In this document: one piece after another, positions 1-64,000 of the stretch
How positions within the stretch are numbered: position 1 is the first letter of the stretch
Layout of the letters: each line of letters starts with the position of its first letter
Assembly (NCBI GenBank): GCA_965178125.1
Contig: OZ237739.1
Location: forward strand, 744,001-808,000
Length of the DNA: 64,000 nt
Direction: 5' to 3'
Origin: Bilabrum cf. latius
Taxonomy: Eukaryota
Notes under the pieces: model-generated
What the model was told of the DNA's origin: nothing
Database searches by the model: none
What the model saw: only the letters and a program-made list of their open reading frames with translations
Program-made: the position numbers and the translations under genes

Positions 1-3000
1 CGGCAACGACTCGGAGCCGATCTATCCCAACCCTCCGTGGATGCACCGGGCAGACGCGTTGATCCTCGATGCCCTGGAGTGCAGTGGCACGGCCAGTTTG
101 TGCCAGTCGTTGGCAGCGGCCGGTGGCAGTGGAGGCCAGCCAGTAGGCCAAGCCGGGGACGCGGTGCTGCTTGGTGCAGCACCGACCGAGGCAGCGTACC
201 TCGAAGCACTCGGGCTTGGTATCAACGCCAGCACTACCGGTCCCGGCAGTGATTTTCATGCTAGAAATCGGAACAGGACCATGTACCACGTTCAGAGGGC
301 TGCATGTCAGCTGGCCGGGGATGCCCTCGGGGGGCAAGCACCGGCTGCAACTGGAGGTGACAGAGCGCGGCAAGGTGACATCCTGTGGGCCGGTCCGGCT
401 GCAGCGTGCTAGGCGTCGTTCGCTAACCAGCCAGGTGGCCTGCTTGCTGTGGTAATTGCACGCAACCACTCAGAAGGTCACTGGAGGCCGGGAATGCCAG
501 TTCTGGAGGGACCTCTTCCATCGGAGTTGGGACTGGCGCAGGAGGCTGCCATGGTCTGGGTAGGTGGGCTTCGGTGCCTCACACGGTCTTGGGTCGACGG
601 CCCGTCGTGGGTCACTATCACGTGCGAGCCGGAGAGGGGGCTAGTTCCGGGTTTGGCTGAGGTGGTGGTACGCTCGGGTGGGGGCGGCTGGTCCACCGAT
701 GGGCTGGAGGCTCGAGGGATTCGGAGTGGGAGTGGGTGTGCACTCGCTTCCAGGCAAGCCGGAGGTGGATACCCTCGTCCAGAGGAGCCGTCTGCCGACG
801 GCGTTGCCTGCGTCGCCATTGGTTACGCGGGAGAACTCGGATTGCGAGCGGTGGAATCCGCTGCACTTGACGAGAAATGGTGGGAGGTGCCCTTGCTGCC
901 GTCAGAGGAGGCGATCTTCGAACCAGTCGGGAATGCCTGGCACGGCGGCTCTGTGCTCGATGCAAGCAAACGGAGCGTGGCCGGCGGTGCAAACGCTCTG
1001 TCTACAGGAGTAGCCACCGATTCGTCGTTGTGGGCGCTACGTGAGAAACACAGGAGCCCTGCTTCCCTTGGCTACCAGCACGTGCGCCTTCGGATGGGTA
1101 CCCTCTCCTGCAGAGTGTCGCCCGATGCAGGCAGTCTGATGGGACTGCAATCCCGGAACTAGCAGACTGGAAGTAGCAGGGTATCCTGCTGGGTGCACGA
1201 TGACCTCCCGGGCGGGCCGTTCCAGGCTGGCATGCACCTTCCTGGGCTGGAGTGGCTGGAGACGGCGGTCATCCCCGCATCTATCGAAGGCGACGATGCA
1301 GCTGTTGCGCCCCTATGGGTGCGATGGGCGAGATCGTAGCTCCAGGGGGTAGAGCCGCGGAAATTCTCTGTCCTAGACATGCTTCAGTCACACCGAGACG
1401 CGTCGTTGAACACGACAGTCACTCTGCGTGGGACTGGGCTAGAGCAAAATGGAACGTCGGCCGCTGTGGAGGTGTTTGTAGGAGGGGCACGCTGCCTTGG
1501 CATCGAGTATGCGGGCACAGATGCCATTCGCTGCCGAGTGCGGCCTGTCGAGGTGCGCAGTGGTGTCATCGAAATTGTGCGAGGCTCAGGAGGGCTTCTA
1601 CTTGATCCAACAGGGATTGATGCGCAGCAGGAATGGGCCATACTATCGGGAGTGGGTTCGTCCGTTTCGCTTGGAGTCCCGGCGCCAGTCGTATTGCCGG
1701 AACAAGGCTCCCCTAGTGACCGGCACACAGGGCTGCTGTCACCCGCAAACCCGGCCGTCCTGGGGTCAAGCCCCACCACCATGTCCACGAGGGGGGGTTC
1801 CGACCTGCAGCTCCTAGGCGTTGATCTAGGGGCATCACAGGGGGAGTATATCGCTTCAGTGGATATAGATGGCACGCCATGTCAAAACCTCACGTGGTTT
1901 TCCGACTTTGTCCTGCGATGCACCTCCGCTGCTTCGCTCGGAGGATAGGGCACGGTCAACGTGAATTCCATCTGGGGCCAGACCTTTGACAGCGCGCCTG
2001 GCATCATAGCGTACGAAATGCCGGAACTGTCCCCGACCAACCCGGTCGAGGTAGATCCGCCCGCCATTTTTAATGTGCTGGCGGAATCGTACGTGGTCCG
2101 TGCCTTCGGAAAGAACTTTGGTTTCCCCAGGCAAGGGGGCAACGGGACAGAGACGAGAATGCAGGTTTCCGGCAAGGACTGCGAGAACGTCACAGTGGTT
2201 AGCGACGGAGAGATAGTGTGCCACGAGATATCACCGCCGTGGACCATTGGTGACTACAGCGTACGGGTGATCCTGCGTGGAGGACGCACAGCGGTGGCGC
2301 TGAGTGCATTCATCTTTCAGCCGCCGGTGCGGGTGGTTTCCGCCCAGCCGGCCATAATCAGCGGAGGAGGAGGCCAAGTCACGATCGGTGGCACCGGGTT
2401 GGGCGCATCCGCTCTGGATGTGCAGTCCGTGCGGGTTGGGCCGCACGCCTGTGGGAATGTGAGGGTGGAGGAAGGCGGCACTCGCTTGACGTGTGACGTG
2501 CCTCCGGGCGTGGGAGCAGACCATCGAGTCGTGGTTGAGTCTAGGCGCAACGGATAGAACGACCCTGTAGAAGCACCAACAGTCTCCTACAAGGCTCCAT
2601 CAGTCACTAAGCTGTCCATTGTGGCTACGTCTGCGAACGTGGGAGAAGCAGAGCCAGTGGCTGCCGGTGTGTCTGCAATCAACGGCTCGAACTCAAACGC
2701 AACAATCGCAGGCACGCCTAGGGCTGCGTCGTACCTGCACGAGACGCTCGTATAGATAGAAATGGATGTTGCAGATGCGGGTTGGGATCTGCAGCAGTGG
2801 AATCCTGCTACTTCTGTCGCCGGGACAGATGGCGGACTGAACAGCACGCAGGAGTATGTAGTCGCTGTCCGTGGATCCACGTGGGCCGTACCCTGCGCAG
2901 GACTGGAGCTGGTGGGGACACAGCCCGCTGCCGCTGAGCCTTCCATCGAGCTCGTATCAAAGATCCGCTGTACGGTACTGCAGTGGCCCGCAGAGGCCAG

Positions 3001-6000
3001 GATCAGCCTTGAGGCGTTGGGTGGGGCAAGCATGAGCGAGGTGGCTCGAGTTGAGTTCTCAGTTGCTGGGCAAGATGTTCAGGGGCACCTCACAGGGGAT
3101 ACAACCGACGAACTTCGGGCCGCTTCCAGTGCCAGCGGAGGCAGTCTGCTTCTGATCGGTCGGCCTTCCATCCAGGTTGTGAGTCCCCGGCTGTTTCCAT
3201 CCAATGGCACGGCGGATGCGGTGGAAGAGGGAGCTGCAGTGCGCGCGCAAGAAGCTACTGGAGCTGCCAGTCCACCCAGCCAACAGCTAGCGATGGCGCT
3301 GCAGATCTAGTCATTGGCAGAGACTGCTGTTTTTCACCGTGATGACCTGCTTGCGGCTGCACCCACCCTCATGACCGCACCTGCATCTGCCGGGCTGCTT
3401 CAGATCCAGGGCAGTGGAATGGGGTTGGGGCCCTGGGCGCTCAGAGGAGTAACCGTCGGCGGCAAGCCTTCCCGACTGGTGGTGTGGGTCTCTAGCACCG
3501 AAGTGCTTGCATACTGCGAACCTGGTGTGGGTTTTAACGTGCCAGTAGCCGTGCAGACGTTGGGTGGCGATAGTCAGGGGATCTTAGAGGGCGGTGATGG
3601 AAATGGACAGGATGACAGTATGCAAGGAAGTGTGCCACAGCAGGCCGCTATATCCTATCAGGCACCGTACGTAGAGGCTATCGAACCGGAGTACAGCCTG
3701 ACTGGCCCAAACGTACTGTCCAACTTCACAATCATAGGGTCTCATTTTGGTTTTGAGAAAGAAGACGTGGACACCGCGTTCGTCGGAGGGCAGTAGTGCA
3801 ACCCGGTGCTGTGGGTGTCGAACGCGGAGCTGCGGTGTCTCGCAGTGCGAGGGGATAACTGGGAGGGCAGCAACGTAGAGGTGAATGTGCGGCAACAGAA
3901 GAGTCCCCGGAACCGCCTATTTGCCCACATTGGTCAGCCGGTGGTCCAGTCAGTGACCCCGCCCAACGGTGTCGGTGGCAATAGGATCATTATTGCGGGT
4001 GAGAACTTTGGCCGTCAGACCGCTGATATTGACAAGGTCATGCTGGGGCAGCACCACTGCGATGGAGTGGTCCTGCGTGGACCGACATCGATCGAATGCT
4101 TCGTGCCACAGCTGGAGGACATCAACGAGCCGGCCATGCCGGTTGTCGTGCACCAGCGGGGAGGGTCCTTCAGCACCGGCGGAGCTTCGTTCACTTACGG
4201 CGTGCTTGGCACTGTCTGGCCTTTCATAGCATCGCGCGTGCAGGCTTGGCGGGAGAGAAACGACCGGATCGAGGTGCGATGGGCCTTCCCTTTTCCAACC
4301 GGTGAGCTAGCCCTCGCACTTGGAGCAGAGCCGCTCCAGGGATTCGAAATCGAGACTAGGCTACTGCCTGCTGGCACCGGCAGCAGCTACGACGCTACGA
4401 CTGCTAGTGCAAGTGCCAGGAACGTCTCAGAAATCCAGACCACGGTCTTCGATGTTGACCTCGAGGACATTCAATTCCGGAACAGCTCTACCGGTGCGCT
4501 GGCTCTTATGAGGGCCTCCGTGACCGCGGTGGATCCTAGGCCATTACAGCTCCGGATCCGCGCATTGAATGCAGCGGGTGGAGGCCCGGCAACTAGCTGG
4601 AGCCCGCTGATTCCATCAACCTGCGCGCCTACCGAATTCCTGTCGACGTACCTCGATCCTTCCGAGTGGGTGTGCAGGTCCTGCGGGGTGACGGCCGCCA
4701 CGTGCGACGGGGGCTCATCCTTTTCGGTCGCAGCGCGTTCCGGCTACCAGCGACTGCCTTGGGTCGCCGGACGAGCTGCATTTATCCGTTGCCCTAGACC
4801 AGAATCCTGCCTGGTTGACACCGAGATTGCAACCGATAGCAAGGTCAATTCTGCTGCTACCGATAACGATGGCGGGTCTGCGCTGGCCGACGACGGCTCG
4901 GACACATCGTCTCTGCCCACTCTGCAGCAGCTGTACCAGCTTGAGCTACCGCCGCCCTCCATAGCCCTTGAACGGGCCGGTGCCATAAGGAGAGCATACA
5001 GTAACGTTACAGGGGGCAGCACCGCTGTACTTCCTGAAGTTAAGGATAGCCCGGCAGCTCCTGCTAGTCATCTCTCGACTATGCTTCCGCCATGGATGCA
5101 GGAAACTTGCGCTGAGGGCTATTCCGGTATCATGTGCGCCAGGTGCGAGCCTGGATACACACCCTGGGGGTCATATGAGTGCCAGAAATGCCGGGGCGGG
5201 GTCGCTGTGGCTGTCGTTGCTGTTTTGCTTACAATGGTGATCGTCATGATCACCATTGCACTGGTGCTGAATGCCCTGAGGCGAGGGGCGCAGACCGCAG
5301 AAAGACTGCAGCAAATGGCACGTGGTGAGACAGAGCGAGAAGACAGGTGGGGCAACGTGGTTACAATCGACTCGAGGGACGGCCGCGGCCGGATGCACGT
5401 CACTGCTGCTTCTACGGGTGCTGCTGATTCTGCGGGTATTGGTAGCGCCTGTCACCCTGCAAGCTCCATGCCTTTACCAGGCTTCGTGGGGCACCCTGAA
5501 TCTAATCGGTTAGGAGGCAAAGTGACGCTGAACCCCTTGTCCCTTGCACAGGCGGGTACCGCGCACAAGAGGCAGGACGCGTCGGTGGGCCCCGGTGCGG
5601 CTTCAATTGATCCGTCTCCGGATGCAGGGAATCCGTCGAGTAGCCGTCTGCCGTCTCAAACGCCGCAGCAGCCCGGAGAAAAGCATCCGACGGACCAACG
5701 CACAGGCTCTCATGCATCGCAAAGCCAGCTCCTTGCCGGAAATGGCGCTCCTTCCACCGGTAGTACCAAGACGTTGACGGTCAGAGAGCCTCGGCAGTGG
5801 ACGGTAGCGGCGATCAAGATCCTATTCTCCCATGTACAGGTGGTCTCCATCGCCTCGTCGTTCAAGCTATCCTGGCCGTCGTCGGTTCTCCGCTTCTTTA
5901 ATAGCATGACAATGTTCTCGAGAGTTAGCTCGGACGTACTGAGCCTGGACTGCATGCTGCAGGGCAACGGCGACAACGCCGGTGTCGTGAATCCAACGAA

Positions 6001-8011
6001 CGCCACAATGGAGTTGAGCTAGATCGAATCGGGGAGCAGTAGTGGAAATGGCCAAGCGATGGACACGAAATGGCTTGCTGTGGTCGTTGGGGGCGCCGAA
6101 GCGGCGGCCAGCAACGAGAGTAATTTCGCTGGTATCGACCCCTCGAATAGTTGGCCTCATGCCGACCTGAATGACATCAAGGTGCTCGCTGGATCCCTTG
6201 GAGTGCACGAGAGTATCATGCTGGGTGAAGGCAAGAGCAGCTCCGGGATTGCGGCCCTCATGCCTCACGGCTCGACGTATTTCCTTCGTACGCTCGTGGT
6301 GCTCATGAGCCCGTTCGTGCTTGTGGCCGGCCTGTCCCTCTTCTGGATCATAGTGGATGCGGTCGATGGATGTCTGTATGAACACGTAGACGAGGAAGAG
6401 GAGGACAAAAATAATTATAGGGAGGGCTTGGCAAGGGAAGAACATCATTAGAGCCGTCCCCAGCCGAACAGAAGCCAGGATTTGCTAGGGGCTGCAGCAG
6501 CGTCCGCGCGTGGAAGCAGGATAGATGCAGCCACTCGGCAGTGCGATGAGCCGGGTGGCCTACGCACGAAAAATGGCAGTGCAGGAGTGATGGGCCACAA
6601 TAATCACATGCCGGGGAGTGCAATGGAAGAGGGTGGGCGCACCCGCCCAGATGACTTCCGACGGCGCCGGAGTAGCGTGTTCGTCCAGTTGGCAAGGGGC
6701 TCACTGCCGGGCCTTGGCCGGCAAGCCTCTTCCACTAAGCCTGATAAAAGCGTCCCTGGGGGAACTGATAGCGAAATTGAGGGTAGTCCTGGTGCTGCCC
6801 GCGGCCCTGGTGTTCAAGAAGGTATGAACGATAGTGCTGGCTCCAATGGCATCCAGGTTTTCATTTCGGGAGGCCGCGGCGGACGGGAACGCGCTGCCGC
6901 AGAAGATAGCGGTGACGATAGTGGTGATGATGAGATATTCTGGCTGGCTGGGTCGAAGCGACCAGCCAGCATTCTGCAGTACGTCGGCGTGCCCCTCCAG
7001 GTGCTGCGACTGTCCCTCGGGATGCGGATCCTGTCGGGCCTCATCGTGATCGGCTTCCTTGTGCATCTGACGCTGACGGAGGCGTCCTTCGGCATGATGA
7101 CCTGCACAGACGTGAGGCCAGACGTGGATCTAGCGGCTGAGGACAGACTGGATCCAGCGGAAGGACGGCAGGGGGGTCTGTCGATGAGTCCGGGGCTGAC
7201 CGACGACTGCCCCGCAGGGACGGAGGGGCGCCGCCTGGTGCTCGACCTTGACGTGTGCTGCTACAACCCGAAGGCATTGGTGCTAATGTACGGCGTGGGG
7301 ATCCCCTCCGTGCTATTGTTTGCCGTCGGCATTCCGCTATCTGCCGGCCTGTGGCTGTGGAGGGTCAGGTGGCACACCGGGGAGCCTGCGGTCCTCTCTA
7401 CGCTAGGGTTCCTCATGGTGGGTTTGCAGGGCAATGCGTACTACTGGGAGGTCGTGGTGATGCTGCGAAAGCTGGCTGTGGTTGCTATTACGGTACTGGT
7501 GGAGCCCTGGGGGGTGCGTGTGCAGACCTACTCGGCCCTGGCCGTGATTTTCGCCGCCAGCGTCCTGCATTCTCTGTACCGGCCGTACAACGCCGGTGAG
7601 TTGAACGCGCTTGAACTGATCGCACTCTGTGGCGCCTTCCTGACGTTCGAGGCGGGCCTGTTCCTGCACGACCCCAACTCAGGCGAGGCCACCATCATGG
7701 CGGCGACTGCTGTGGTTTTCCTGTCAAACCTCGTCGTACTCATCGCTGGCATGTATGTGATGAAGGAGAGCATCATTAAGGCTGGGAAGAGTGCGTGCAT
7801 TGCCATTGGGGCAGTTGCAAGCAAGTGGGCGGGCGGTGAGGGCGGGGGTAAGGATGCGTCTACGGCACCTCAGAAGGGGACCAACAGCCGCGGGAGTGCA
7901 GGTACTAGTGGGCCGGCTGTTGCGAGCGGAAATGGACAAGGTCAATCTGGATGGCCTGCAGGAGGTACCGGTGCCGCTGGTGGGTTATACCGCGTGGGTG
8001 CACTAAGCTGA
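1..8011 (+). CDS. Large surface/membrane protein, 5'-partial: IPT/TIG-like repeats, FN3-like domain, Cys-rich (EGF/laminin-like) segment and multi-pass TM C-terminus
   Basis: Nine ORF-track fragments (41, 449, 1379, 1961, 2762, 3314, 3806, 6059, 6482) share one frame and are separated only by TAG (410, 1160, 1337, 1946, 2555, 2753, 3308, 3794, 6020, 6449); ends TGA 8009-8011. TIG-like motifs (ITIGGTGLG..VRVGPHAC..LTCDVPPGVG; IAGENFG), LRIRALNAAGGGP, CAEGYSGIMCARCEPGY, TM block with YYWEVVVMLRKL. Confidence 0.85.
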
Positions 8012-8046
8012 CTCAGCTGAGGCCAGCACAGCCTAGGCCGGTGCTG

Positions 8047-47615: not shown

Positions 47616-49324
47616 TCATGTCATCGTAAAGTGCGACTGGAGCTGCTTTCTAAGCTCGAGAGAGTCTGCGTGCTCTGGGTACGCCTCCAGCGCCCTTCCA
47701 ACCATCTCGAACGCCTCCTGAAACTGCCCTACTTTGTACGCCAGCAGTGCGCCGTTGAATTGAGCCTCGTACAGGTGTGGCGCAAGACGAGCTGCGGATC
47801 GAAACGAAGCCCGGGCCGCCTCAACGTTCCCCCGGCGCATCTCCAGCACGCCGAGATTCACCATGGCCTCCGCGTGCTGGGGGTCTGCCGCGAGCGCAAC
47901 CTTGAACGCCTGGTAAGCGACTCCCATATCGCCAATCCCGATGCCTATGTGGCCCACGTTGTACCAGACGTCGGCCGCCGCGTCGTCCTCGGCCATGGCG
48001 AGGGCCCGCTCGAGGCACGTGAGAGCCATGTCGAACTGGGAGGCGTAGAAGCAGCACAGGCCCAGGTTGGTCCACAGCTCGGCGGAGTGCACGCCCATCT
48101 GGAGCAGCCGCCTATAGTACCGCAGCGCGATCTCCGGCCGGTCCGAGTAGAAGAAGTTGCTCGCCAGCGATGCGATTGCTTCGATGTGGCCGGCGTCCCT
48201 CGAGAGCACGCGCCGGTACAAGGCGGCGCTGGCCTGCACCTCCCCCAGCATCTCATGGACCCTGGCCATGCCCTGCAGCAGGTAGGCCTCGTCGGGGAAC
48301 CGCTGCAGCCCCTTCGAGTACCACTGCAGAGCAGTGGCCGGCTGGTCCAGCTTCATGTAGCACTTGCATAGCTCGAGGTACCCGTCCACCGTGGGCTGCG
48401 TCTGCAGGGAGCTCTTGAACTGCCGCTCGGCCTCCCGCAGCAAGCCCAGCTGGTAGTACGCCTTGCCCAGCCGTGACTTCCACCACCAATCCGCAAAGCC
48501 AACCTTGACTGTGGCTGCTGCCGCCAGCTCCACTGCCTTCCTCGGGTTATGGTCGTGATACAGAATGTACTCGCAAAGGGCCTTGGCCACTGCTGCTCGC
48601 CCGGCGTACCGCTTCATGTCCAATCGTTCGACGTCGATGAACGGACCGCCTTCTTGGGACATCATAGACGCAGTGCCCAGCCGCACCGCCCGCCCGAGGC
48701 TGGTCATGGGCCGGGAGCTGCCCGCCCTTGAGCTCTTGAAGGCGCTGCTGGCGCCAGTCTGCATCCCGGTGATCGGCCGGGATGACGTCCCCGGGCGTAA
48801 GAATCCCGACACTGGTCGACCAGTGGCCGTTACAGGACGCATGGCGGGATTGTTTGCGGAGGAAGCGCTCCCAGTGATCGGTCGATGCAATGATGTTCCA
48901 GCTCTGCGCGCAAGGACGAAGTATCATCAATGTACAATGAAAAGGTCCATGAAGATGCGAGCCGCACTTTCTGATACCGGAGTCGCTATGACAACCTACT
49001 TGCTCACCTCGGCAGCTGGGCAAGGGCGTTGTCGTCCATTAACAGTTCAGCTACGCCCTCCTCCTCCATCTCTGTATCGTCAATCCACATCTTTTCTGTC
49101 AGTGCCCTGGTTTTCAGCATCCAGACAGCCCGATCGAGAGAATTCTATTTTAACAACTTAGTGCATAGATCGATGCATGCATCGTACTGCTAGCAGTCGA
49201 ATTTAAACTGGGCATAGAAGAAAGGGTCCACGCCAGCGGGGATCGCAGCCTCATCAGTGGCACCCGCCTGGCTTTCACCAGCTCCGCTAGCAGCAGCGGC
49301 TATTGGCTTTAACGGAACTGCCAT
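47616..49324 (-). CDS. BBS8: BBSome subunit TTC8/BBS8, 2 exons
   Basis: Exon 1 DPFFYA..CIDLCT..AVWMLKTRALT..EEEGVAELLMDDNALAQLPR with TAG at 49190 and 49145; intron 49007-48904; RPMTSLGRAVRLGTASM, DWWWKSRLGKAYY, TPR array; TGA end. Confidence 0.96.
48904..49007 (-). other. Spliceosomal intron (104 nt)
   Basis: GTGAGC...GCGCAG; splicing gives QLPRAGTSL, matching BBS8 PRPGTSL. Confidence 0.92.
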
Positions 49325-49449: not shown

Positions 49450-50235
49450 ATGGAAGCTTCCTTTGGGTAGACAGTGTCTGGTGCTCTAAAATTGAAAGGA
49501 ATTGATCTTAGTGCGTCAGCAGCAGGGGGCAAAAAGAAGAAGAAGAAGGACAAGAAGCGCAAGAAGAGTTCCAAGGACTCTGGCAGCGAAGCGGCCAGCT
49601 CTTCCCTTGTCGGACGGAAGCGATCGCGAGAGCCTGATGCGTCTCATGATGCAGATTCATCTGGGATGATTGGCGCTAGAGTGTTTCGAGGAGCAGGGTC
49701 CGTGACTGTGGCCGGGACTGTCGTCACCGGGATTGGGACGAAGTTCCTGTCTGAGTTGCGGGATGGTGACGCCATCAAGTTGGAAGCTCCATCCTTACCG
49801 TATTCGCCACCATCGAGTGCAGCTAGCAGTAGCTCCAGCGGTGCATCGACTGCTTCAGCAGCGGCTTCCAGTACTTCTAGTGGCGAAGTGCGCGTAGTGA
49901 AGCACGTCTTCTCGGACACCCAGTTGAAGATAAGTTCTCCCTTCCCCGGGACCCACGCCGCTCCCGTTCCATATACTTGCATGACCCTCCCTCGAAAGGT
50001 GGAAACCGAAGCAGACCGTCAGGCGAAGGAAAAGCGGCGGAGGCTGGCGGAGGAGAGCGCGGCTGCCGGCACGTACGGGGGTGCCGGCGGCCACGTGCTG
50101 ACGTTCCGAGAAAAGAAGGCAGGCACTTCCCATGGATCCTACCGTATCGTCACCAAGAAGCTGGACGGGCCTATCAGCAGGGAGGAGCTGTTGCAGATGA
50201 GGGCCAAGAAGAAGAGCGACAGGTACTGCATGTGA
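49450..50235 (+). CDS. Basic nuclear-type protein with FRG1-like termini
   Basis: ATG 49450, TAG 49468, LKLKG + poly-Lys N-terminus; C-terminus ELLQMRAKKKSDRYCM resembles the FRG1 tail (LLDRRAKLKADRYCK). Confidence 0.7.
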
Positions 50236-50359: not shown

Positions 50360-52857
50360 TCAAGGACCCTCTACTGCCAGAGGCACGGGCCTAGCCGTGA
50401 CGCCCTCTACATCGGTGCTTGCAGACCTGTGCCGCACCCCGCCAGAGAGACTTGAAAGCTCCACCGAGGCAGCATAGGCCACAGCACCGGCTGCGTCCCC
50501 AGGTTGTACCACATCAACGGGATGGCCCCTCCCGTTCTTTGCACCTGCCTTGCCTTCCTCCCCCCCTCCCTCCCCTTCTCTGTCCTACATGCCCAGCTGG
50601 ACCTGTGCCCCCTCCCTCTCCTGCTCCTGCTACTCCTCCTTGCGCATGGCAGCGGCATTCACGATGGCAGCTTCTTTCTGTCTCGTGTTCTCGCCCTTCT
50701 CTGCCGCATCGTTTATGAGGCTCCAGCCACCCAGCATCAGGGCCAACATGCCGAGAGCAATCCAGCTGAAGCTCCCAAGAAATGCCAGCTTGCCGCCGCC
50801 CATCTGGTAGAGCCACCCTCCCATGAGCGCCCCGATCGCGCCCCCGAGCCCCCAGTGTGTTCCTGTAAGCAAGCCCTGTGCCGTGGCTTGCAATTCTCGG
50901 GGAGCCGCCGCGTTTGCGAATGCGGTGCACGCAGCCCAGCCGGCGCCGTAGGTCACCCCATGCAGCAGCTCGGCAGGCAGCACCCACCAAGCATCGCCAG
51001 CAGCTGGCACGACGTACGAGTACCACAGAATCCTGAGAGTGTACGCGACCAACGCCGCCATCAGCATGGCAGAGTGGCCAAAGCGGCGCAAGAAACCCCC
51101 CGAGTAGTGAAACACGGGTACCTCGGCCACGCACGTCACCAGCAGGCACATTCCGAAGAGGAACCGAGACGAGCCCGGCTGCGTCTCGAGGTACACGAAC
51201 AGGAACCCGCCGATGGTGCCAAAGCATGAGCCCATGCATAGCGCAACAAGAAGGAAAACCTGCATGGCGCGGTTTCCCACCAGCATCTGCACCTCGTCCC
51301 AGGTTGACCTCGGCTTGGCGGCCAGTGATGAAGCGCCGGCTGCGGCGCCGTGCGGGCCAGACACAGGCCGGCCCGACCGAGCCGCACCTTCCGCGCCTTC
51401 CAAATGTCCCGCAATTGGAAGCAGAGACTACTGCTCCACCTCGCTTGGCTACCCTGCACCATGTCGCTCGCTGTCGCCGAGCCCCCCGTGCACAGGAGCA
51501 TTGGCCCCCGCCCCACCGAGCCCCGAGCCCTCCTGCTTGTAGGCCTAGTCCGAAGAAGCCCTTCCTCGGGAGAGGTGGGCAAACTTGGGCGCTGTTTTCG
51601 CAGCACGCCCATCCTCAATCTCCACTACTTCAGCCTTTGATTCCAAGCCCATGGCTGCGTCGTCCTCACGACCCCGACCATGTGTAGCCGCCCCGCCTGC
51701 CTCGCTTCCCACTACTTCCTCGTCGCCCTCCGCCCCACTCACAGACCCTCCCATGCCAATGAAACCAAGCCCCCCTTGGGTCGTGCCATCACTCACGCTG
51801 CCAGATACGCTATTCCTGTCCCTGTTCCCTTCGCCGCCGCCCAGAGCAGCGTCAACATCCCTGGTGACCGCCCTCATCCTCTCCTATGCGAGGCTCTTCG
51901 AATGGGAGCTGGCCACCAGACCGATGGCTTCGTCCTCCCAGGCCTCGTCCTGAATGGCACCTGAGATGTGTCTTTCATCTGAACCCTCGTCACGATCATG
52001 ATCTCGCGTTTTCTGCTGGATGCGGGGCAGCTCGGCAGATCCACCCGTGCCGGCGCCGCGCCCTGCCACAGCTTCCTCCCCTTGGTCTTGGGACCGGTCC
52101 ACAGGCTCGTCCAATCCGCAGTCTCGAATCACAACAGCTGCAACCAGGGCAGACAGCGCTTGAAATACCGCGAACATCATGAAGCTCACGGCGAAAGACT
52201 TGGTTGCGTCCTGCACAGCTCCAGCGACTGGCGACATGATCCCCCAGCCTACCGCCCCATAGAGCCTTTGCTGCCCGTAGTCTTCGGCAGCATGCAGCTT
52301 GATCCGCGAGTCCTTTTTGGCTGGAGTTGATTGAGATGCAGACAGCGCCTTGGAACGATTCACGACTGCCATCACGGCGGCGTCCAATTGGGATGGGACC
52401 GGGGAGGCCACAAATTCGGCGATAAGGACAGCAGCTAGAAGCGGCCAAAATGTGTGCAGGCTCAGCAAAGAGAATCGAAGGATTGTACCAGCAACCAGCA
52501 GTGATAGAAATACGCACACGCGGCTCCCAGCTTTGTCAGCCACCATGCCCCACAGTGGTGAGGCAACAATGCTAGTGACGTTCCCGATAGCTCTCAAAGT
52601 TCCGATTTGGACCGGATCCAGGCCGTTGTCTTCGAATAGAAGAACTACAAATGGCATGAAGCAGGCCCAGCCGCTATAAATCAGGCCGTACGAAGCCTTG
52701 CATCTCCAAAGCAATCCCTGGAGAACGCTATCTTGGGATTCGACTGGAGTAATCATTATCTGCAAGCTGGCCCACGCATCGAATTGCAATGTATTAGAGC
52801 TCGAAACGGCAAATACCTTACCCCAAGGAAGTAATTGGGCATTTCATGTTCCTGCAT
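50360..52857 (-). CDS. Major facilitator superfamily transporter (MFSD6-like)
   Basis: Two 6-TM halves (ASPLWGMVADK, YGQQRLYGAVGWG, AEVPVF, ELLHGVTYG, LQATAQGLL); TAG at 51884, 51545, 51449, 51428, 50630, 50585; TGA 50362-50360; probable intron 52821-52760 (GTAAGG..CTAAT..TTGCAG). Confidence 0.88.
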
Positions 52858-52956: not shown

Positions 52957-53876
52957 ATGGCCGAGCCAATCCATGTAGAGGGAGCTGTGAGTTACTCGTT
53001 GTTGGTTTGATATGAAGGCTGCTTGGCCTCGATGTGATCACTTCATCTTGGCCCGAACAGCACCTATTGCTATTGTCGTTAAGCACGCAGTCTTGCGGCA
53101 ACACATTCTCACGCATCGTGAACATCACGGTATTCAAGGTAGAGGGACTCCCGAAAGGACTACTTGGGTTTCCCAATGCATACGTAAAGAGTAAGTTTGG
53201 ACTATGGAGTTGCCCAAAACCCGGTCACTGCCTCGAAACCGATCTCTGCTTTGGTTGGGGTAGATGGCCTGCGTGGGTGCCTATTCGACATTGTGATCGC
53301 GGTGTCCTTTGATTGTTCATTTAACATATCCTTGCAGTGACCCCTGATGTGCCTTGCCAGGGCGGAGTGCTTGGAACTGCTTTCCAGGGTGAGAGCCAAC
53401 TACGGAGCCAGTGCATTCACAGGCATAGGAGCCAGTCGAGAAGCAAGTTTGCTTGCTACAGCGTGCATATAATACTTAACTGTCTACTGAGACTACTGCT
53501 GCGATGCATGGATGCATGGATTCTGTATATTGTACATTTGTCTCTCGCAGGGCTGTCGAGAACGCGCACCTTGACTTCTGACGACGGCAACTACCAGTGG
53601 AATGAGTCGCACGTGATGATGTGCATGCCACAGAAGGGATCTCGCATCGTGTTTGAGGTGTTTGAGAAGGGTACGCTGTGGGACTCGCCCTACGGCAAGG
53701 CTATTGTTACGTTCGATAGCCAGCTGAACGAAGATGAGAGCAAGGCCCAGAAGAGCTTCAAGAAGACCGGCATGATCATTGCCGAGATTGATGCTGGAAG
53801 CAAGGGTGGAGGCCGCATCTACTACCAGATCTCGACCATGGGAGCCACGACCCCGTTCCAGATGACTACGGCATGA
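52957..53876 (+). CDS. Small C2-domain protein, 4 exons
   Basis: Exons 52957-52986, 53091-53190, 53338-53388, 53551-53876 with phase-consistent GT-AG introns; VNITVFKVEGLP..PNAYVK..WNES..IVFEVFEKGTLWDSPYGKA. Confidence 0.75.
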
Positions 53877-54151: not shown

Positions 54152-55720
54152 TCAATAATCGATCTTCTGCCCCTGCTTGACCAGTTCCTGCTGCAGCGCA
54201 CTCACGTCGAGAGTGTGCATGTCCACGGGGCTGCTGCCTGCCTTTGACGCGGCCATGGCTGCGGCAACGCCAGACGACTGCCCAAGAATCATAAACTGGG
54301 GCTCCAGCCGGATCGCGCCGTACCCGATGTGGCTGGCGCTGCACGGGACCGGTGCCAGAAAGTTGGCCGCCTCGGTTTTCTTGGCGAGAAGCATCCTGTA
54401 GGGCATCTGGAAGGGCCCATCCTGGTGGCCCACCTCGATGTCGCCCTCGTTCCTCACGTACTGGGCCGACTGCGCGAATCTGATGGCGTGGTGGGTGTCT
54501 TGGTTGTAGCTCCCGAGCCCGATGGAGTCCGTTTTGTTCTTGTGCACCATCCTGTCGTTCTGGTTGAACACGAAGTCGCTCACCATCCTGCGACCCTCCC
54601 GCACGTACAGCTGGAAGGGCCACCCCTCCGTGTCCTTGAACTCGTCCTTTGACAGGCCGTAGGCGCTGAACTCTTCCCGTACCTGAGGGGGCACGCTGTC
54701 GTCCGTCAGCAGGAACCAGAAGAACTCCCACGTGTACTGCTTGTGCGCGTCGTAGATGGCCTGCTGCTCCTCGTAGCTCGCCTCGGGGAAGTTCCAAGAC
54801 CCCCCGATCATGTCCGTTGAGATGGGCCCATGGTTGTTGATGTCCGTCTTGGAGTTTGGCATGGGAGACACGATGATGAAATCCGTGATCTTGGCCTTGC
54901 TCGGGTCCACGGCCTCCTTCATGTAGTTGCGCAGCAGCTGCCACTTCGAGGGATCGTACCCCGGGGGCTCTGTGAAGTTGTTCCGGTTCGACGGGTTGTC
55001 GGTGAGGCACATCCGGAAGTTGTACGCCTGCACGCGCTTGTCGCCCTCGTGGTACGGGGTGCTGGGCTCGGGCAGGACGAAGGGAAGGAGGGTGCCATTG
55101 GGCCACGTGTGCGTGACCGGCTTGTAGAACTGGTGGTCCCCGTCGTTGTTCGGGACTGGGAGGCGGCCTGCGAGGGACTCGTTGTACTCTGTCTGCCCCT
55201 CGCGACCCCATGTGTAGGAAATATTTGCTCTGGGGAGCAGCTCCCCGTTGTAGCTCGCGTCCAGGAAGACCTTGGCGCTGTATGTGCTGCCGGACTTGGT
55301 CGTGATCGAGCGGATCTAGCGCGTCGAAGGGTCGAAGTCTGACGATACCACGGGCTCATTGCGAACGATAGATAGGGACGATTCCTCGGCCATCATCTCC
55401 TCAAACACTTCCTCCGCGACGTGGGGCTCGAAGAAATACGTCGGATCCGACTTGCCATACTTCTTTCCCACTCGCACAAAGAACTCGTTTGCCATCCCCT
55501 TAACGACTGCAGCGTTGCCAATATCAGTTTTACCCAATCCTGAAGCGACCATGCCACCTACGTGCTATTGCTCGTGGACCAGGAGCGTCTTCGCGCCTGA
55601 TCTTGCGCTCGCCACAGCAGCAATGACTCCTCCAGCAGTTCCCGAGTAGACAATAACGTCTGCATCATGAGTAGCAAAACTAAAAGAGAACAATGTGAGT
55701 GCAGCTACGACTGACCGCAT
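54152..55720 (-). CDS. Secreted FAD-dependent oxidoreductase (FAD_oxidored family)
   Basis: Signal peptide, DVIVYSGTAGGVIAAVASAR, *HVGGMVASGLGKTD, FLDASYNGEL, QAYNFRMCLT, LYVREGRRM, SASHIGYGAIRLEP; TAG at 55565 and 55316; TGA end. Confidence 0.92.
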
Positions 55721-56512
55721 CTCCGGCCGTATGTTGGAGGTGTTTTTATTTCGCTCGACGGTGCGTGGCGCCGCGCGTGAGGTTCCGCAGTCACCCAACT
55801 GCAACTTGGAGTTTAGATACGCCAAGTTCAAATAGACTCGCCTTTGAGGCCTAGTGTGCAGTTTGTTGGATTGATATTACGTACTTGTTCCTTCCACTAG
55901 GGTCGAAACCCCTCAAATGAAGGCTAGTACGTCTTCCTTGCATATTTCCAAGACACATGATAGTTTCTCGTTTGAATTCACATAATAGAACTACAATATG
56001 CCAGTATTATTCGCTGATAACTACGCGTGAGGGAGTATTTTCGTTGCACTCTAACACACACCAACAGCGCCGCAATCAGTTCTCTGAACCACTGAAGCCT
56101 TCGTGCAATTCAGACATTGCTGAGGGCTTGCACCTTCGCGCGCTGGACGCAGTGCTTGGGCAAGATCAAGAAGTTTGTTTGGTGTAATAGAAATGATTGC
56201 GTTGGGGAATGAGCGGAATAGGGGCGGTGGCAACCGGTAGACACAGGTAGGGCAGGAACGTGCGTGCACCCAATGGATTGCGTGATCTCACAAGAGTAAT
56301 AATTGCACCCCTTAAAGAAATTAGAGCAGTGCCGGATTTAAATTTGCAAGCAGAAAAGGCCTATATGTAGTTTGAAGCCATATCGTATTTTGCAGGCCGC
56401 AGCAACGGTAGGATCCGAGATAGCCCCAAAGATCCAGGTAGGACCGGTCGCAACCTCACCAGTCCTTGAGATCCGCCCACTCGTTCACAGCCACGGTATC
56501 AAGTCACAAACA

Positions 56513-57297
56513 ATGCGTGGAACACTTACTGCTGCCATGCTAGCAATTGCCTTTGCGTGCATCACGCGAACCACCTCCGCCCAGGAAGCCTGCTGCGCCG
56601 ACGTGTGCATCGGCGGGGCCGATGATGTCTGCAACGGGAGTGAATGCAGTGAAGGCTTCGAGTCGTGCATCTGTGCAGGAGCATGCGACTCGCGCGCTAT
56701 TGAATGCGTTGCAGACGCATGCTTCGCTCGCAAGGACAAAGCGAAGGTGAGTGGCGCTCAGGGTTCGCGTGCCACCTCAGGATCGCTACTTTGGCGATGG
56801 CAGTCCGTCTAGTCGAGTTTGCACGAGACTGCTACTCTAGGATGCAAGTAACAGCCATACGTGTATTTAGTTTCGCACCGCAGCGGGATGGCGTCATCGC
56901 TGCAGCGGTCCTCACGCCAATCGTGCTGCTCGCGGCATCCATCGTCGGCTGCGCCTACTGCTGCAAGTGCTGCTGCTTTGCGCCAAAAGAGGGACAGCAA
57001 GTGACCATCGGGCATGTTGGAGGCACACCACATCCAACGTACGCAGCTGGTGCACCCCATGCAACTGTGAACCCGACCATTGGCACTGGAATCGCCCCGG
57101 GAGTGATCGTGGGCCCACAGGGATCAGCACAAGCTCCCACACAAAACATGCACCAGGCCCCTACGCAGCCGCCTCCGCCCCCAGGACCGTCGCTACCAGA
57201 GGGATGGTCTGCGATCACAGACCCGTCTACGCAGCGCACGTACTACGCGCACACGAGCGGGAAAACGCAGTGGGAACTGCCGGAATCTTCCAAATGA
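56513..57297 (+). CDS. Single-pass membrane protein: Cys-rich ectodomain, Cys cluster after the TM helix, C-terminal WW domain (2 exons)
   Basis: Signal peptide; intron 56747-56883 (GTGAGT...CCGCAG, phase 0); TM VIAAAVLTPIVLLAASIVG; LPEGWSAITDPSTQRTYYAHTSGKTQWELP. Confidence 0.85.
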
Positions 57298-57461: not shown

Positions 57462-60400
57462 TCACAGCATCATTGCGAAGCCGGCTTCATCGCATCCCTT
57501 GCTCTTGGCTACCTCCAGCACCAACGCTTGCATTCCTTCCATGAACCGAGGCGTTCCAATCACGTACACCCTTCGCAACGAAGCACCAGCGGCTGCATTA
57601 TGTCCCCTGCTGCCCCCAGTCGAAGAAGATCGCTCGTCCTGTGGTCCGGCCCACACGCGGATCGGCAATGCGTCGGTGAGCGTGCCAGCTACCATCGCTC
57701 CTCGTCGCAGTACGCGATGCATTAAGAACGCTTCCAGCGCATCCCTGCCAAATCTGCCTTCGGACCACGATTCGGGCCGGATGCCGCACAGCACTGCGGA
57801 CCCTGCCCCGGTTGTCCCGGACACGGGTGCATCCTCGCCAATCGCACCGAGACTACCGATGCCAGTGGGGGCTTGCTTGTAATTGATCCACAGCTGCAGT
57901 CGAGGTGCGGCTGGCACGCCCCATGGGCCTGTGCTGCCGGCAAGCTTGCGCAAAATCGACCTAGCAGCCTGCAGCGCCTCTGCGATCAGTGCCATCTTGC
58001 GCAGCCAATGCACCGCGACCGCGTCTGTCTCGCTGGCTGCAAGCAAGCAGATGCGCATGCACATGCTGGACCCAACCAGGTTGCGAGCACGTTCGCGGAT
58101 GGCAGCCGGCACTGTCAGGACCTTAATGATTGCCTCGCGGGCCCTGGCGAAGTGCTTGTCATTGTCAGTGCCGCTGCCCTCAAGTGCTGTTGCCACAGCG
58201 TACTTGCCGCTGGGGCTCGGACCCGCAGGCCCATCCACTCCCGCGCTGATGATGCGCTGGCGATCAAGCCCACCTCCAGTAGATCCTTTCGTAGGATTGG
58301 ATGCTGCCGCGACCCCGGGCAGCGGCGAGATGTCGCTTGCTGCAAGTAATACACCGCCGGAGCCAGGTGGACTGGAACTATCGTCCTGGCGTACAAGCCG
58401 CAACAACTGGTCCAGTTCTTCCTCATCCAGCGCAGAAGACAGCACCAGCTGCGTAGCGAAGTCCAGCACTGGCAGCACTCCAGTGCCAGCCGCCACCACC
58501 CCAATCACGTTTGTACCTGCAGCGGAAGCACGATCTGAAGCATCGTCCCCGCCCGGTCCAGATGCTGCCCCGCCCCCTTGGACTGAGGTCGCCCGCAACG
58601 CGTGATCTGGTATAGACATACCTGCCCCGTATGGGCCTCCTAATTTCACAGCAGCGTGCTCCCCAAGCTCCGCGTGCGCGATTTCGTGCAGGTAGCTGGA
58701 CGCCAAGCCCCCGTCGATTCGACGCACACAAAGTGACAGCGTGGAAGCCGTTGGCGTTGCGAGGCTGCCAATCAGGTCCTGCAGGCTCGCTCCTTCAAAG
58801 TGGGGAGCGGCTGCTCGCGCGCCGATCGCGCTCCTGAACGTGTCAAGCATGCCCACACCTCCCGCAGAGCCAGAGTCACATCGGGCGAGGCCATCCAGCA
58901 GCCGCCAGGTGAGAGAGGTCCATGGCTGCATACCGGCAGCCAAGTCGACACGAACTATGGTGTATGGCCGCGTGACCTCTGCCTGAACAGCTGCAGGGGC
59001 ACCTTCACTAATCCTACCGTCCTCTGAGTGCCCATTGCCGACCCTCGACGCGCGAGAGGCCTTTGATACGTTGCTGCCAACCCGTCGCAGATTGCGATTT
59101 GAGATGCCGCCAGTGGCACTCACCACAGTCCTTCTTGACTTCATCTTATCTGCCATAGCGCCGACACCCGCAGCAGTGGCATGCGCCGCATTGCCACCTG
59201 CGCCATGCACAGCGGTTGACCCCTTGCGCACCTCCTGTTCGGAGCCGGCCGCAATCACCGACGCAGCTCTATCCTCTGCCTCCGCGGCAACATCTGTGGT
59301 CCGTAATCGATCTGGAGACAGGTGCACATACATGTGCTGCGCGTATGAGTCTAAATTTGAGGCATCCAGGGTCAGAGGGGGACCATCAGGCTTCGTCCGG
59401 CCAGGCACTTCATCGCCGCTGCTGCACTGCACGGTTATCTGCGCCACTGGCCGCTGATCAACAGGTAATCCAATGGATGTGCACAGAGAGTCCTCGCCAC
59501 TTGTGACTGCCTCTGGTCCGGTGAGGAACACGGACTTCTAAACGTTGAATAGCCTGGGTGCGCAGTCATCAGAGCTGCTGTACCCGCTCCCACTTCCTTG
59601 GCCTTCGGCAGCAGGGCCTCCCTCAACGATCTTCTAAAGATCCCCATCTTTCAGCGCCTCGTGGATCAGCAGCCACGAAGACCTCCTCTCCTTGGGTTTC
59701 TTGCTTCCCTGCAGACTAACCCTCCTCTGCTTTTTGCTTGGGCTGGACCTGCCACTGGCGATGGAGTTCCGCGAGACGCGATCGGCCCGGCTGCCTCCTT
59801 CGAAGCCACTTGGCTTGCTGGTGGGGCTCGCCTTGCTTTCGGAATTGACTGGCTCACCCTCGGGTTTGCCTGCGGCCTCGCCCCCTCTCTCGACAGCATC
59901 CTCGTCGGGGACAAGCGAGGCGATAGCGAGGTCAGCCAGCAGAGCCCATGCGTAGTCCGAGTGCTGGTGCAGAGCGAGCCTCTTGTCCATCCTGGCCTCT
60001 CCAAAGAAATACTCAGTAATATCCTTGCCAATGCTCCGAGTAATCACGGCTGAGCTACCAGGATGGCGGGGCGCGAAGCCAGCGAGGTCGACTACAAAGT
60101 CATTCACGATGGTGAACTCGTCGCCTGCCTCGATGCACTCGTGAAAATGTGACACGGTCATCAGTGGCAGATCGCTGCCCCCATCGTCTTCAAGCCCGAT
60201 CGCTTCGATGCCAGTTTCAGAGCTGGCCAGTCGAGACATGTCACGGTCGCTCTACATCGAGGTGCCAGGGAGCGACATGCCGCCGGAATCATCCGCGGTG
60301 GGCAGCAAGCGCAGCTGCTCGCCAGCAGAAATCTTCGAATCTGCAATACCTGCATGCCTAGCTCTTGCACTGCTGCGAGCCGTCTACGCGGCGGAGACCA

Positions 60401-63400
60401 CCCTCGTCAGTGTACCCATTCCGACCTTGGGTGGGCGGGCCCTCACATCGGAGAGGCCCTGCCGACTGCCTCGCCTCTTGAGCTTAGCAGTGCGCAGGCT
60501 CGTCAGGACACCCTTGGACTTTGCGCGGTTCCGCAGCAGAGACAACTGGTATTGCTCGTACACACCAATGCCGATGAAAGCAGCGATAATCAGGCCGTAC
60601 CAAGCGATGGGCAGCCACATGTACCCTCTCGCAGTCATCTCAAATCCGATCGCAACGTTCGCCACGGTCAAGCCAGCCACGAACCACCCGAAACCTCGAT
60701 GCCCGATGCGCCACGGTTTGAACACAGCAGATGCGTTCACGTCCTCCCCAGTATGGTATTCTTTTGCTGCCCGCCCCATCATCAGCTGGATTACGGCGCA
60801 GCCAGTGATGATCACCCCGATGAGCAGGTGCGGCGACAGGCGCCCGTTCCCCGCGCTGAAGGCAGCAGCAGCTGCGGGTATTGTAATGGCAGTTGCCAGC
60901 GTCATTGCCATGGCGTGAAAATCGAGCCAGAACTGCCGGTGCTCCTTGAATGCCCTCAGTGCGAGCCACGTGATGGGCAGCAGCACGGCCCAGCACGTCG
61001 TCATCAGCACTGCGTGCACAATAATGGGCACAGGCACTGCTGGGACTAGGGACCGCACAGAGCTGTCTACCTCGATTTGAGAGCCGGCAAACAGTGGCAG
61101 GGCCACCACCTAGCGCCTGCTGGTCCCATGGTATGACATGACGATCGTGTTGAACTGCCAGGCAAAGATCATCTCAACCAGATCAGAAGAGCTCGGCGCG
61201 GAGGAGGCGCCGGCGCTCTGGTTGCTGGGCGCGCCTGCATACTCTTGCACGTTCTCTGGCACATAGATGCGCTTGTTCCTCCCGTCAAACGGGTCCACCG
61301 GTCGCACAAATTGGCAGAACACCACCTGCTCTACTTCTGCACCGGGCGATGGTCCCTAGCCGTCGGGACCGAAGATTGTGCTGGCGTTCAGCTGAGACGA
61401 CACCTCGCTACGTTCCGACATGGGCCTCTCCAGGACCAGCCCTAGGCCAGCTCCACCTGCTGCCAGCTGTGTGTCGAGCCATGGCACCGCGCTATCGATG
61501 CTGGGCACAGTCTGTGCCTGGCTCGTGGTGTCGTGCAGCTCTAGTGACCTCGCTTCCCTGCCCTGCGGTGTCTGGCATGTGATGATATCCGAATCGAACA
61601 TGCCTCGTCCCAAGCCAAGAGACATCCACGCCACTCCGTTTGTCGTGCGAAGCGCCAGCGTGAAAGCTACATGCGTCACTGGATCGGCACCAGCAGTCTG
61701 CATCCTTCGGCCAGCTCCGGAGCCTCCAGCCACCTATAGACCGAGTCGGTCCGCAGCTGATGCACGGATGGTGCGCCAGCGGAGCACGTGCTGGCAGTCG
61801 CCGTCGAGGAATGCCAGCAGGCTGCACAGCCTAGTCTCGCCATCTCCGCTAGGATCGCCCCCCTAGAAGCCAACGTGCAGCAACGGTCCCAGGCCCAAGG
61901 CCTCCCTCTGCCTCCTGTGCTCGTCCGACTCCCTGCCGATCCCATCCGCTGCCACTGCCTCCCCTGCCAAGATACCTAAGTCATCGGGATCCTGCACGAT
62001 CTCAACCTCATTGGCTGGCAGCACGGCCGCACCGCCAGGCCCGGCCCGCCCCCAGGCCGGCAATACGATGCCTGCCTCGGTATCAGTGCCGTACACCTGC
62101 GCCATCACCGCCTTGTCTGCCTGCTCGTCACCGGACCCGCTGGGGTCACCCGGCATCTCACCAAGGTCTGTCAGAATGGGCACCGCCAGCCGTGTGCGTC
62201 TGGTGCCGTGGTACACCGGTGTGGATGATTCGAAGCTCCATGCCAGCAAGAACGGCAGTTCGGAGGTCGACCCGATCGGCACAGACGTGGCACCGGCTGG
62301 CAGTCCGGACAGCACGTCCACCGGCACAAACGGGAAGTTCTGCGACTCGGAAGGCAGGAGTCGCCTCGACACGACGCAATGTGTGCTGCCAGAGCCAGCG
62401 ATCAGATTCTGCGAATCGCCCCCGCCAAATACTCCGTCCGCGTTGCCACGACCTCCAGCCAGCAGCATGGTGTCTCTCGACACGACCCGCGTGCCATCCA
62501 CCGACCCGTCCGAGGACAGACGAGCCACGTTCCCTCCGTCTGGCCGGGGCGGCAGGAACCCGATACCCGTCCCATCAACCAGCGTCACGGCACCGTCCGC
62601 ATCCACACCACAAAACATAAGATCTGAATTTCCCATCCCGGTCCCGGCCCCAAATCCCGCCCAGGTGGGCGACGGGTCGGATGCATCACCGAGAGAATCC
62701 AGCTCCACGATGATGATCGCAAACTCAACAGTGCCGTCACCAGCGGGGCCGCCAGCCGATGAGCCGGGCACGCCGGCGTCCTCCAGCTCCTGCTCGGTCA
62801 ACCCCAGCGGGCCAGCAACCTCTCTGAGCCTGGACGCCGACATGGTCGCAAACGACAGCCGCACGCCCGCTTCGGCGGACCCTTGCCACGCAGCATCGAT
62901 GAAAGCGTCTCTGGTCCGGTTGAGAGCCATGGGCTGCCCGTTGCTGCTCTGGGACGCAACTCGATCTGCGGGCGCTGGAATAGCCGACACCACGAATGCG
63001 TCGTCTGGAAGCCCGGTGATCTCGTTAGCGGATCGTAGCAAGGCGGACACGCTGCGGCCCCTAACATACTGCAGCTCCAGGCCAGTCAGCAGCCCCTCCC
63101 TCTCGTACCACTCCGGGTCACCATCTCTTAGAGCGAGGAACTGCTCCTCGAGGATGGCCCGGAACAGAGGACCCACCTCGGGGCGGCGACTACTGCTGCT
63201 GCCTACATTTGACGACAGAGGGGGAGGTGGGCCCACTTCCGTTTCTGCCAGCCCGCCGACGATCAGATCAACCGAGGCGTCCAACGCGTCGGGGCACCCG
63301 CCGTACAGGCTCACGAGATCTGCCACGCGCCGTGGGCTCGCACCCGCACCGAGCACGGTGCTCCACCTCCGTACCTCGCCTGGAGCAGCGGGGTCTCCGC

Positions 63401-64000
63401 CCAGGTTGGCTGCATCGCCACCTCCCCCCACCAATCCAGCAGCAGCCGGGCAGCTGGTGTTGGTGAGCAGCTCCAGCGCTTGCTGGGATAGGCCAGCAGC
63501 CCGGGGCAGCTCCCCTCCGCTACTAGAGGTAGGCAAGGGCCCCGCCTCACCCACGAACGATCTCGCGGGCGGGCCGATCCCGGCCTGGTCAGCGGGATCC
63601 ATGTGTTCCCTGTACAGGCGCCTGGCCTCTCCATAGGAAGCCGCGCCCAGGTCCCTGCTCCTGGCGATCGCGAGTGCGACCGCGTCGCCGATGCCGCTCA
63701 CCTCGAAACTGCGGAACCGGGCCCGGATGGAATCCGCCGCGTACAGGCTCGGAGCTGCCGCTTGCCCCACTACCATGCCCCGCAGCAGGGGTGCCCACAC
63801 GTGCCCGGGCCTGGCCCGCTCGGCCTGCACGCCGGCCGGGTCCCTGACCTGCTCGGAGGGGGCGTCCAGCGCCGCCTCAGCCTCGTCTGCGAGCTCCAGC
63901 GGGCGAAACATCCTGGACACGGTGTCCAGGGGGCCGGCAGGGGATAGGCTGCCGTCTTCCCGGAGGCGAAGAGCGGTACCCGGCGTGCGCATCAGGGCCA
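57462..64000 (-). CDS. Fusion oxidoreductase, 5'-partial: heme-peroxidase-like + 2x DOMON + cytochrome b561 + cytochrome b5 + FNR-type FAD/NAD(P)H module
   Basis: One frame with 8 TAG (61863, 61734, 61356, 61110, 60384, 60252, 59634, 59538), TGA end. Motifs VDLIVGGLAE..GPLFRAILEEQFLALRDGDPEWYE; GMGNSD..YHG and GMFDSD..YHG; four b561 His; HPGS..HQHS; RPYT, GPYG, AAGTGVLP. Confidence 0.88.

Follow-up and report, generated by a model that had tools for sequence, protein, structure and literature searches.

Nuclear codes in which UAG has been split from UAA are few, and the sections of PMC5304391 and PMC11687900 that treat them name Iotanema, exLh, Scotinosphaera, a handful of ciliates and the ciliate PL0344. 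The first demonstrated cases in which UAG alone was reassigned and UAA stayed a stop were those of the rhizarian exLh, where UAG is leucine, and of the fornicate Iotanema spirale (Panek et al. 2017), where UAG is glutamine and UAA and UGA are both stops, UAA being predominant, as described in the parts of PMC5304391 devoted to these two organisms. In Scotinosphaera, UAG is serine, and there, as in exLh, UAA remains a stop, according to passages in both papers (PMC5304391; PMC11687900). The sections of McGowan et al. 2024 on individual ciliates describe Protocruzia tuzeti, Hartmannula sinica and Trochilia petrani as reading UAG as glutamine and UAA as a stop, and the logic accepted there is that a CUA anticodon reads UAG and does not read UAA (PMC11687900). 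Here, we analyse the use of TAG and TAA in the genes of a stretch of 64,000 nucleotides (contig OZ237739.1 of assembly GCA_965178125.1, Bilabrum cf. latius, positions 744,001 to 808,000), hereafter the 64-kb window. We consider it probable that UAG has been reassigned to sense in this genome, most likely to glutamine, with UGA as the main stop and a minor role left to UAA as a terminator, a code of the type of NCBI table 15.

The window shares with Iotanema the in-frame reading of UAG, here probably as glutamine, the lack of in-frame UAA and UGA and the decoupling of UAG from UAA. It differs in that UAA is the main terminator in Iotanema, as far as the relevant part of its description goes, whereas all 15 window genes end in TGA, and in that Iotanema is an anaerobic metamonad, whereas the window lineage branches with a stramenopile, is GC-rich and encodes malonyl-CoA decarboxylase as well as a subunit of complex I. 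With the UAG-only ciliates, on the portions of the account that concern them, it would share the reassignment of UAG alone, the retention of UAA and the proposed tRNA with a CUA anticodon. However, the window is not ciliate-like, being a gene-dense 64-kb piece with a G+C content (GC) of 0.60, GT..AG introns of 104-162 bases and a TTC8 gene that groups with Cafeteria. The codon table proposed for the window, with TAG as glutamine and TAA and TGA as stops, is also given for code 15 viral genomes, including phage, in the part of PMC9523058 that concerns them, but the window, with its introns and its housekeeping genes of eukaryotic type, is nuclear DNA of a cell. The original prediction for this DNA had treated the split of UAA from UAG as unusual; as the cases above indicate, codes of this type are already known (PMC5304391, PMC11687900).

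When the standard or the bacterial code is applied, the window is fragmented into many short open reading frames (ORFs), and reading through TAG turns these into very long ones, the longest TGA-delimited ORF having 6,105 residues with 25 TAG and neither TGA nor TAA inside. ORF boundaries were set by TGA alone, which left TAA free to occur inside ORFs; gene models are ORFs trimmed to the first ATG, except that the TTC8, C2 and WW genes were spliced from joints in RNA-like contigs. Pfam domains are spread along the length of the TAG-containing ORFs. The 15 gene models contain 71 TAG and no TAA in 17,465 codons, and all 15 terminate in TGA. The WW-domain gene may have a 5' leader that takes in one of these TAG codons, which puts the count at 70 to 71. 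Among the glutamine codons, CAG occurs 525 times and CAA 124 times, in the leucine pair TTG occurs 171 times and TTA 32 times, and the rarest true sense codon, TGT, still has 28 occurrences. The original prediction that no coding model contains TAA, that TGA is the terminator in 15 of 15 and that CAA is nonetheless used is thereby upheld, as is its figure of ~70 TAG. Among the TGA-delimited gene ORFs there is a single in-frame TAA, at codon 12 of ORF 54152..55912; it lies 5' of the ATG and outside the transcript contigs, these ending at 55729 to 55736. TAA is not scarce in the underlying DNA: in the 10 large genes, each of the five remaining frames has 23 to 85 TAA (237 in total) and 94 to 139 TAG (598 in total), and the density of TAA in non-genic DNA is 3.6 to 3.7 per kb per strand. 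Outside the genes, no ORF of at least 70 codons that ends in TAA had a positive coding score. TAG is a sense codon in the genes of the window, and TAA is not used as one.

Many ciliates, hexamitid diplomonads and some ulvophyte green algae read both UAA and UAG as glutamine (UAR=Gln; NCBI table 6). This ordinary code resembles that of the window in TGA as terminator and in TAG as glutamine, the probable reading here, and the GC of 0.60, the minority position of A-ending codons and the exclusive use of TGA terminators would all be compatible with it, with TAA rare merely through GC bias. In table 6, however, TAA is also glutamine, whereas the window has none in its 17,465 codons. We calculated the number of TAA expected if it were used like TAG by scaling the 71 TAG with each observed NNA/NNG codon ratio of the 15 genes, which gave 10.3 (CTA/CTG), 16.8 (CAA/CAG) and up to 59.3 (GCA/GCG), and the probability of finding zero TAA is at most 3.3e-5 across all these ratios. 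The genes have a GC at third codon positions (GC3) no higher than 0.64 to 0.78, which fails to explain the absence of TAA, since every ratio predicts at least 10 TAA and none was found. The UAR=Gln code is refuted by this deficit, and a relative described below moreover ends a gene at TAA, so that we regard this code as scarcely credible here. The expectation that a UAR=Gln code would leave internal TAA, and the proposal that UAA is uncoupled from UAG, are thus both borne out, and the escape by which GC3 would account for the scarcity of TAA is closed by all NNA/NNG ratios.

The in-frame TAG codons are also found unchanged in contigs that appear to derive from RNA. Public-run contigs were compared over positions 44001-64000 (20 kb). 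Run X1 contains the whole 20 kb in one DNA-like contig, and runs X6 to X8 contain transcript-shaped contigs that are without seven GT..AG introns of 104 to 162 bases each. One contig carries a poly-A tail that starts after 54090 (C2 gene), and an 18,467-letter RNA-like contig of X6, with its end at 47445, has a size that fits the giant REJ gene. The intron-less joints, the poly-A tail and the transcript-sized contigs suggest that X6 to X8 are RNA-derived, although the run records do not state RNA. All 23 in-frame TAG of this 20 kb lie under RNA-like contigs, 22 in X6 and one in X8, and no differing letters, insertions or deletions are listed in the X6 to X8 contigs over the region. If X6 to X8 are RNA, these spliced, tailed and unchanged contigs mean that neither RNA editing nor pseudogenes nor misassembly accounts for the TAG codons. 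The probability of an artefact of this kind (pseudogenes, TAG-to-CAG RNA editing or an assembly error) is in our view negligible: no point in its favour was found, RNA-like contigs of two further coded studies (P3, P4), spliced and with a poly-A tail, are identical over all 23 TAG of the 20 kb, a DNA assembly carries the whole 20 kb in one piece, and in a 98%-identical strain, too, protein fragments are delimited by these TAG codons. On the TAA deficit and the unchanged RNA-like and DNA contigs, we rejected the UAR=Gln code, RNA editing, pseudogenes and assembly error.

These fragments belong to the haem-peroxidase/DOMON/cytochrome-b5 protein gene at 57462..63998 on the minus strand, which has eight TAG, no TAA, a TGA stop at 57462-57464 and its 5' end beyond the window. 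Database fragments of its coding part, 57465-63998 (P0413, P0414 and P0416), are cut exactly at its TAG codons, with 241 and 201 residues at 100% identity and 89 residues from the 98%-identical strain. Standard-code gene calling has shredded the proteins of the source organism.

UGA terminates all 15 genes, and the oxidoreductase alignment of a relative ends within two codons of the window TGA; UGA is a working terminator, not a sense codon. This relative, the one contig (L001) yielded by a metagenome scan for relatives, is 2,038 bases long with a GC of 0.53. It encodes the last 181 codons of the FAD-dependent oxidoreductase (PF12831), whose window gene lies at 54152..55720 on the minus strand with two TAG, no TAA and a TGA stop at 54152-54154, and it has 82% protein and 76% DNA identity to the window and keeps the same convergent C2 neighbour gene. 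Its oxidoreductase ORF terminates in TAA, two codons beyond the position of the window TGA; past this TAA, GC3 falls from 0.74 to 0.48, similarity is lost, and the next in-frame TGA is 95 codons off. The C2 orthologue terminates in TGA, so that one of the two gene ends in the contig is TAA. The same contig has an in-frame TAG opposite a window CAG (Gln 420), with identical flanks on both sides. Judged from this alignment, TAA appears to terminate a gene in a close relative that also has an in-frame TAG. Searches of genome_contigs found no relative with TTC8, and with the FAD-oxidoreductase only a bacterial homologue of 43% identity (L002), which comes from a Bryobacterales metagenome-assembled genome (L002 10001-11551).

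Of the options for UAA, that of a rare stop is the best supported, and we think it likely. UAG would have been reassigned to a sense codon, most likely glutamine, without UAA being reassigned alongside; UAA, still recognised as a stop, would for that reason be excluded from reading frames, and would simply be a rare terminator in a GC-rich genome. A tRNA-Gln with anticodon CUA, pairing with UAG only, and an eRF1 that has lost recognition of UAG and retains that of UAA and UGA would underlie such a code. No tRNA gene was found in the 64-kb window by ARAGORN, with or without introns, nor was there an Rfam match at gathering scores, and none of the 15 genes encodes eRF1.

Several observations weigh against reading UAG as glutamine and UAA as a surviving stop. 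As regards UAA, no window gene ends in it (0 of 15), and we infer its use as a stop in the source genome. The TAA terminator of the relative is a single gene end on one short contig, from another species whose code could differ. The original prediction had also proposed looking for enrichment of TAA just downstream of stops, and there is none: the 300 in-frame codons after the 15 stops (20 each) hold one TAA, with ~1.1 expected. The same 300 codons hold one TAG and eight TGA, the latter with ~3.8 to 5.4 expected. Back-up TGA codons look enriched after stops, lying at +2, +7 and +16 past the FAD-oxidoreductase stop and at +3 past two others.

These counts could be taken to mean that UAA is effectively unassigned, with no tRNA decoding it and no gene ending in it, and that UGA is the sole working terminator. 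TAA is absent both from the 15 terminators and from the 17,465 sense codons, the back-up codons beyond chance expectation are TGA and not TAA, and even the C2 gene, which has the deepest RNA-like contigs, ends in TGA. Against this, the background ratio of TAA to TGA is 102:431 in non-genic DNA and 237:1286 in the off-frames, a TAA share of 0.19 or 0.16, under which the absence of TAA from 15 terminators has a P of ~0.04 to 0.08. The window by itself is therefore unable to decide between UAA as a stop and UAA as an abandoned codon, 15 genes being too few. The relative with the in-frame TAG does terminate a gene in TAA, and eukaryotic eRF1 reads UAA in all the UAG-only codes described in the relevant part of PMC5304391. 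An unassigned UAA is, on balance, rather unlikely, and a free-living eukaryote of a Cafeteria-related stramenopile lineage with UGA as its only stop, UAG as glutamine and UAA vacant is somewhat more doubtful still. If it were true, this would be a stage caught in the act, from which UAA could next be captured or lost. The original prediction had left UAA as either a rare stop or nearly abandoned; the TAA end in the relative indirectly favours the former, and abandonment is not established.

A further point against the favoured reading is that TAG occurs within the last 15 codons of two genes, 12 to 15 codons before TGA, and a dual stop and sense role of TAG is possible for those two genes. Context-dependent codes, in which a codon is sense or stop, are found in Condylostoma and Blastocrithidia, and TAG, perhaps also TAA, might here be read as sense or stop by its nearness to the mRNA 3' end. 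The short 3' untranslated regions (UTRs) of two genes, 14 to 30 bases, would agree with this: the distance from the TGA to the ends of the RNA-like contigs is 14 to 27 bases in the FAD-oxidoreductase gene and 30 bases in TTC8 (47586-47618). However, C-termini fixed by homology run to the TGA, in the FAD-oxidoreductase by alignment and in the M1 peptidase by Pfam ranges, no gene needs a TAG or TAA stop, and the C2 gene has a 3' UTR of 214 bases, so that we hold a context-dependent code to be very improbable.

Given that TAG is sense, it very likely encodes glutamine, as judged by comparison with homologues. The closest comparisons place TAG opposite CAG in the metagenome relative and opposite glutamine in P0415, a relative of the peroxidase gene with 57% identity, which has Q at window TAG codon 1205, beside a conserved SAA, and whose predicted protein stops immediately before window CAG 1345. 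The M1 aminopeptidase gene (22133..25561, minus strand; four TAG, no TAA, TGA stop) has TAG at site 315, where Cafeteria has Q, and at site 1121, where Q is found in 38 of 95 homologues. Two of its four TAG sites lie in insertions missing from 90 to 95 of the 95 homologues and are therefore uninformative on the residue. Most TAG codons sit in poorly conserved positions. The FAD-oxidoreductase TAG columns are mixed, with R/N/K/A and R/K/T/Q, and PDB alignments left the TAG sites of malonyl-CoA decarboxylase uncovered, the FAD-oxidoreductase being without a PDB match. Q stands beside TAG in 10 of 142 neighbour positions (0.07) versus 0.03 to 0.048 for other residues, a test that is unable to discriminate because canonical Q itself reaches only 0.042. 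The code of the window resembles those of exLh and Scotinosphaera in that UAG is split from UAA in a nuclear code, and differs in the amino acid: its TAG columns are polar or basic, and in BLOSUM62 scores summed over six TAG columns of distant homologues leucine (-11) and serine (~0) stand well under glutamine.

The remaining points against the favoured reading concern the residue. The same BLOSUM62 sums place R (7.95) and K (5.95) above Q (4.56), with E below. Cafeteria has R at both TAG sites of TTC8, a two-exon gene at 47616..49324 on the minus strand with both TAG in exon 1, no TAA and a TGA stop at 47616-47618, and its residues at two M1 sites are D and A. The fragment P0417, with 89% identity, breaks off immediately ahead of a GAG (Glu) codon of the window; a TAG and the contig end are equally possible causes, and a TAG there would not fit glutamine.

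TAG could thus be sense and encode arginine, lysine or glutamate instead of glutamine, TAA being used as in the favoured reading. Besides the order R > K > Q > E in the six columns, 77 of 99 homologues, and Cafeteria too, carry R at TTC8 site 45, the other TTC8 TAG site being mixed (K/R/A/Q/E), and at FAD-oxidoreductase site 135 R is found in 61 of the 182 rows aligned, with 34 gaps. TTC8 site 45 says little, however, since its neighbours in the window also depart from conserved basic residues, with D and C opposite R and R, and columns at the window's own CAG and CAA glutamine codons are often R-, E- or G-rich too. Weighed against the closest comparisons, in which TAG stands opposite CAG and opposite Q, another residue is unlikely, and to our knowledge UAG=Arg has never been described. 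We therefore retain glutamine as the probable meaning of UAG.

The window encodes eukaryotic proteins, including the ciliary TTC8/BBS8, NDUFB10, malonyl-CoA decarboxylase and an M1 aminopeptidase, and the closest named relatives of TTC8 (62% identity) and of the M1 peptidase are from Cafeteria. In a FastTree phylogeny of TTC8, built from 33 sequences chosen among the 120 matches listed plus one cluster member, the window and Cafeteria are sisters with a local support of 0.987, and a Logan protein joins the pair at 0.998. This one gene tree suggests a bicosoecid-related stramenopile placement. The window probably belongs to the nuclear genome of an aerobic, flagellated protist with few introns and a high GC, a stramenopile allied to Cafeteria. 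The code of Cafeteria itself is presumably the standard one. The FAD-oxidoreductase looks bacterial in origin; among its best matches looked up, the sole one with an organism name is an amoebozoan transcript, and this protist lineage may have acquired the gene by an old transfer.

The other genes of the window likewise lack TAA and end in TGA. On the plus strand, an IPT/TIG-domain membrane protein gene (2..8011; 10 TAG; stop at 8009-8011) has its 5' end beyond the window, and is followed by a Methyltransf_22-like protein gene (18666..21248; four TAG), an SRPBCC/Polyketide_cyc2 protein gene (21453..21959; no TAG), the malonyl-CoA decarboxylase gene (25533..28136; four TAG) and a FAM32A-like gene (49450..50235; one TAG). 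The minus strand carries a low-complexity protein gene of no Pfam family (15568..17910; three TAG), which with a coding score of 0.109 is the weakest gene model, the gene for the complex I subunit NDUFB10 (28279..28713; one TAG), the giant REJ-domain (polycystin-like) gene (29049..47312; 6,088 codons, 25 TAG) and an MFS_1_like transporter gene (50360..52756), whose six TAG all lie in loops or low-complexity sequence. The REJ-domain gene, 18.3 kb in a single exon, is unusually long for an intron-free protist gene. The largest gene-free gap contains a tandem satellite at 10065-14742, with a 130-base unit in ~36 copies that match at 91-93%; it is open in all three plus-strand frames, yet its coding scores are negative, and it was rejected as coding sequence.

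Introns and transcript ends were visible in the RNA-like contigs. The GT..AG intron of TTC8 (48904-49007, minus strand) is spliced out in contigs of three runs. The C2-domain gene (52957..53876, plus strand) has no TAG and no TAA, four exons (52957-52986, 53091-53190, 53338-53387 and 53550-53876) and a TGA stop at 53874-53876. Over 52957-54090, this TAG-free gene has the deepest RNA-like contigs, 2,871 in X6 versus 35-180 for its neighbours, contig depth being a poor gauge of expression. The spliced WW-domain membrane protein gene (56193..57297, plus strand) has no or one TAG by choice of ATG, no TAA, a TGA stop at 57295-57297 and introns at 56244-56392 and 56745-56881, with a further one upstream at 56027-56152. 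Its stop and that of the convergent peroxidase gene are 165 bases apart (57295-57464), and one contig spans both. Very short 3' UTRs are seen at two genes (54125-54154 and 47586-47618). The stretch, in whole or in part, is present in runs X1-X16 (X1 to X5 being DNA-like), from 10 coded studies with nine coded organism labels and two metagenome labels, which suggests that the source organism often travels with other cultures or samples.

A full-text literature search, with most subscription journals outside its coverage, returned no report of such a nuclear code for bicosoecids or other stramenopiles. The code of the window would therefore be of a rare but already described type, in a lineage for which no prior report was found. 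The DNA and apparent transcripts of the organism are already in the public runs of several coded studies, and gene callers using the standard code cut its proteins at every TAG. If the affinity to Cafeteria holds, the split of UAG from UAA would have had an independent origin in stramenopiles.

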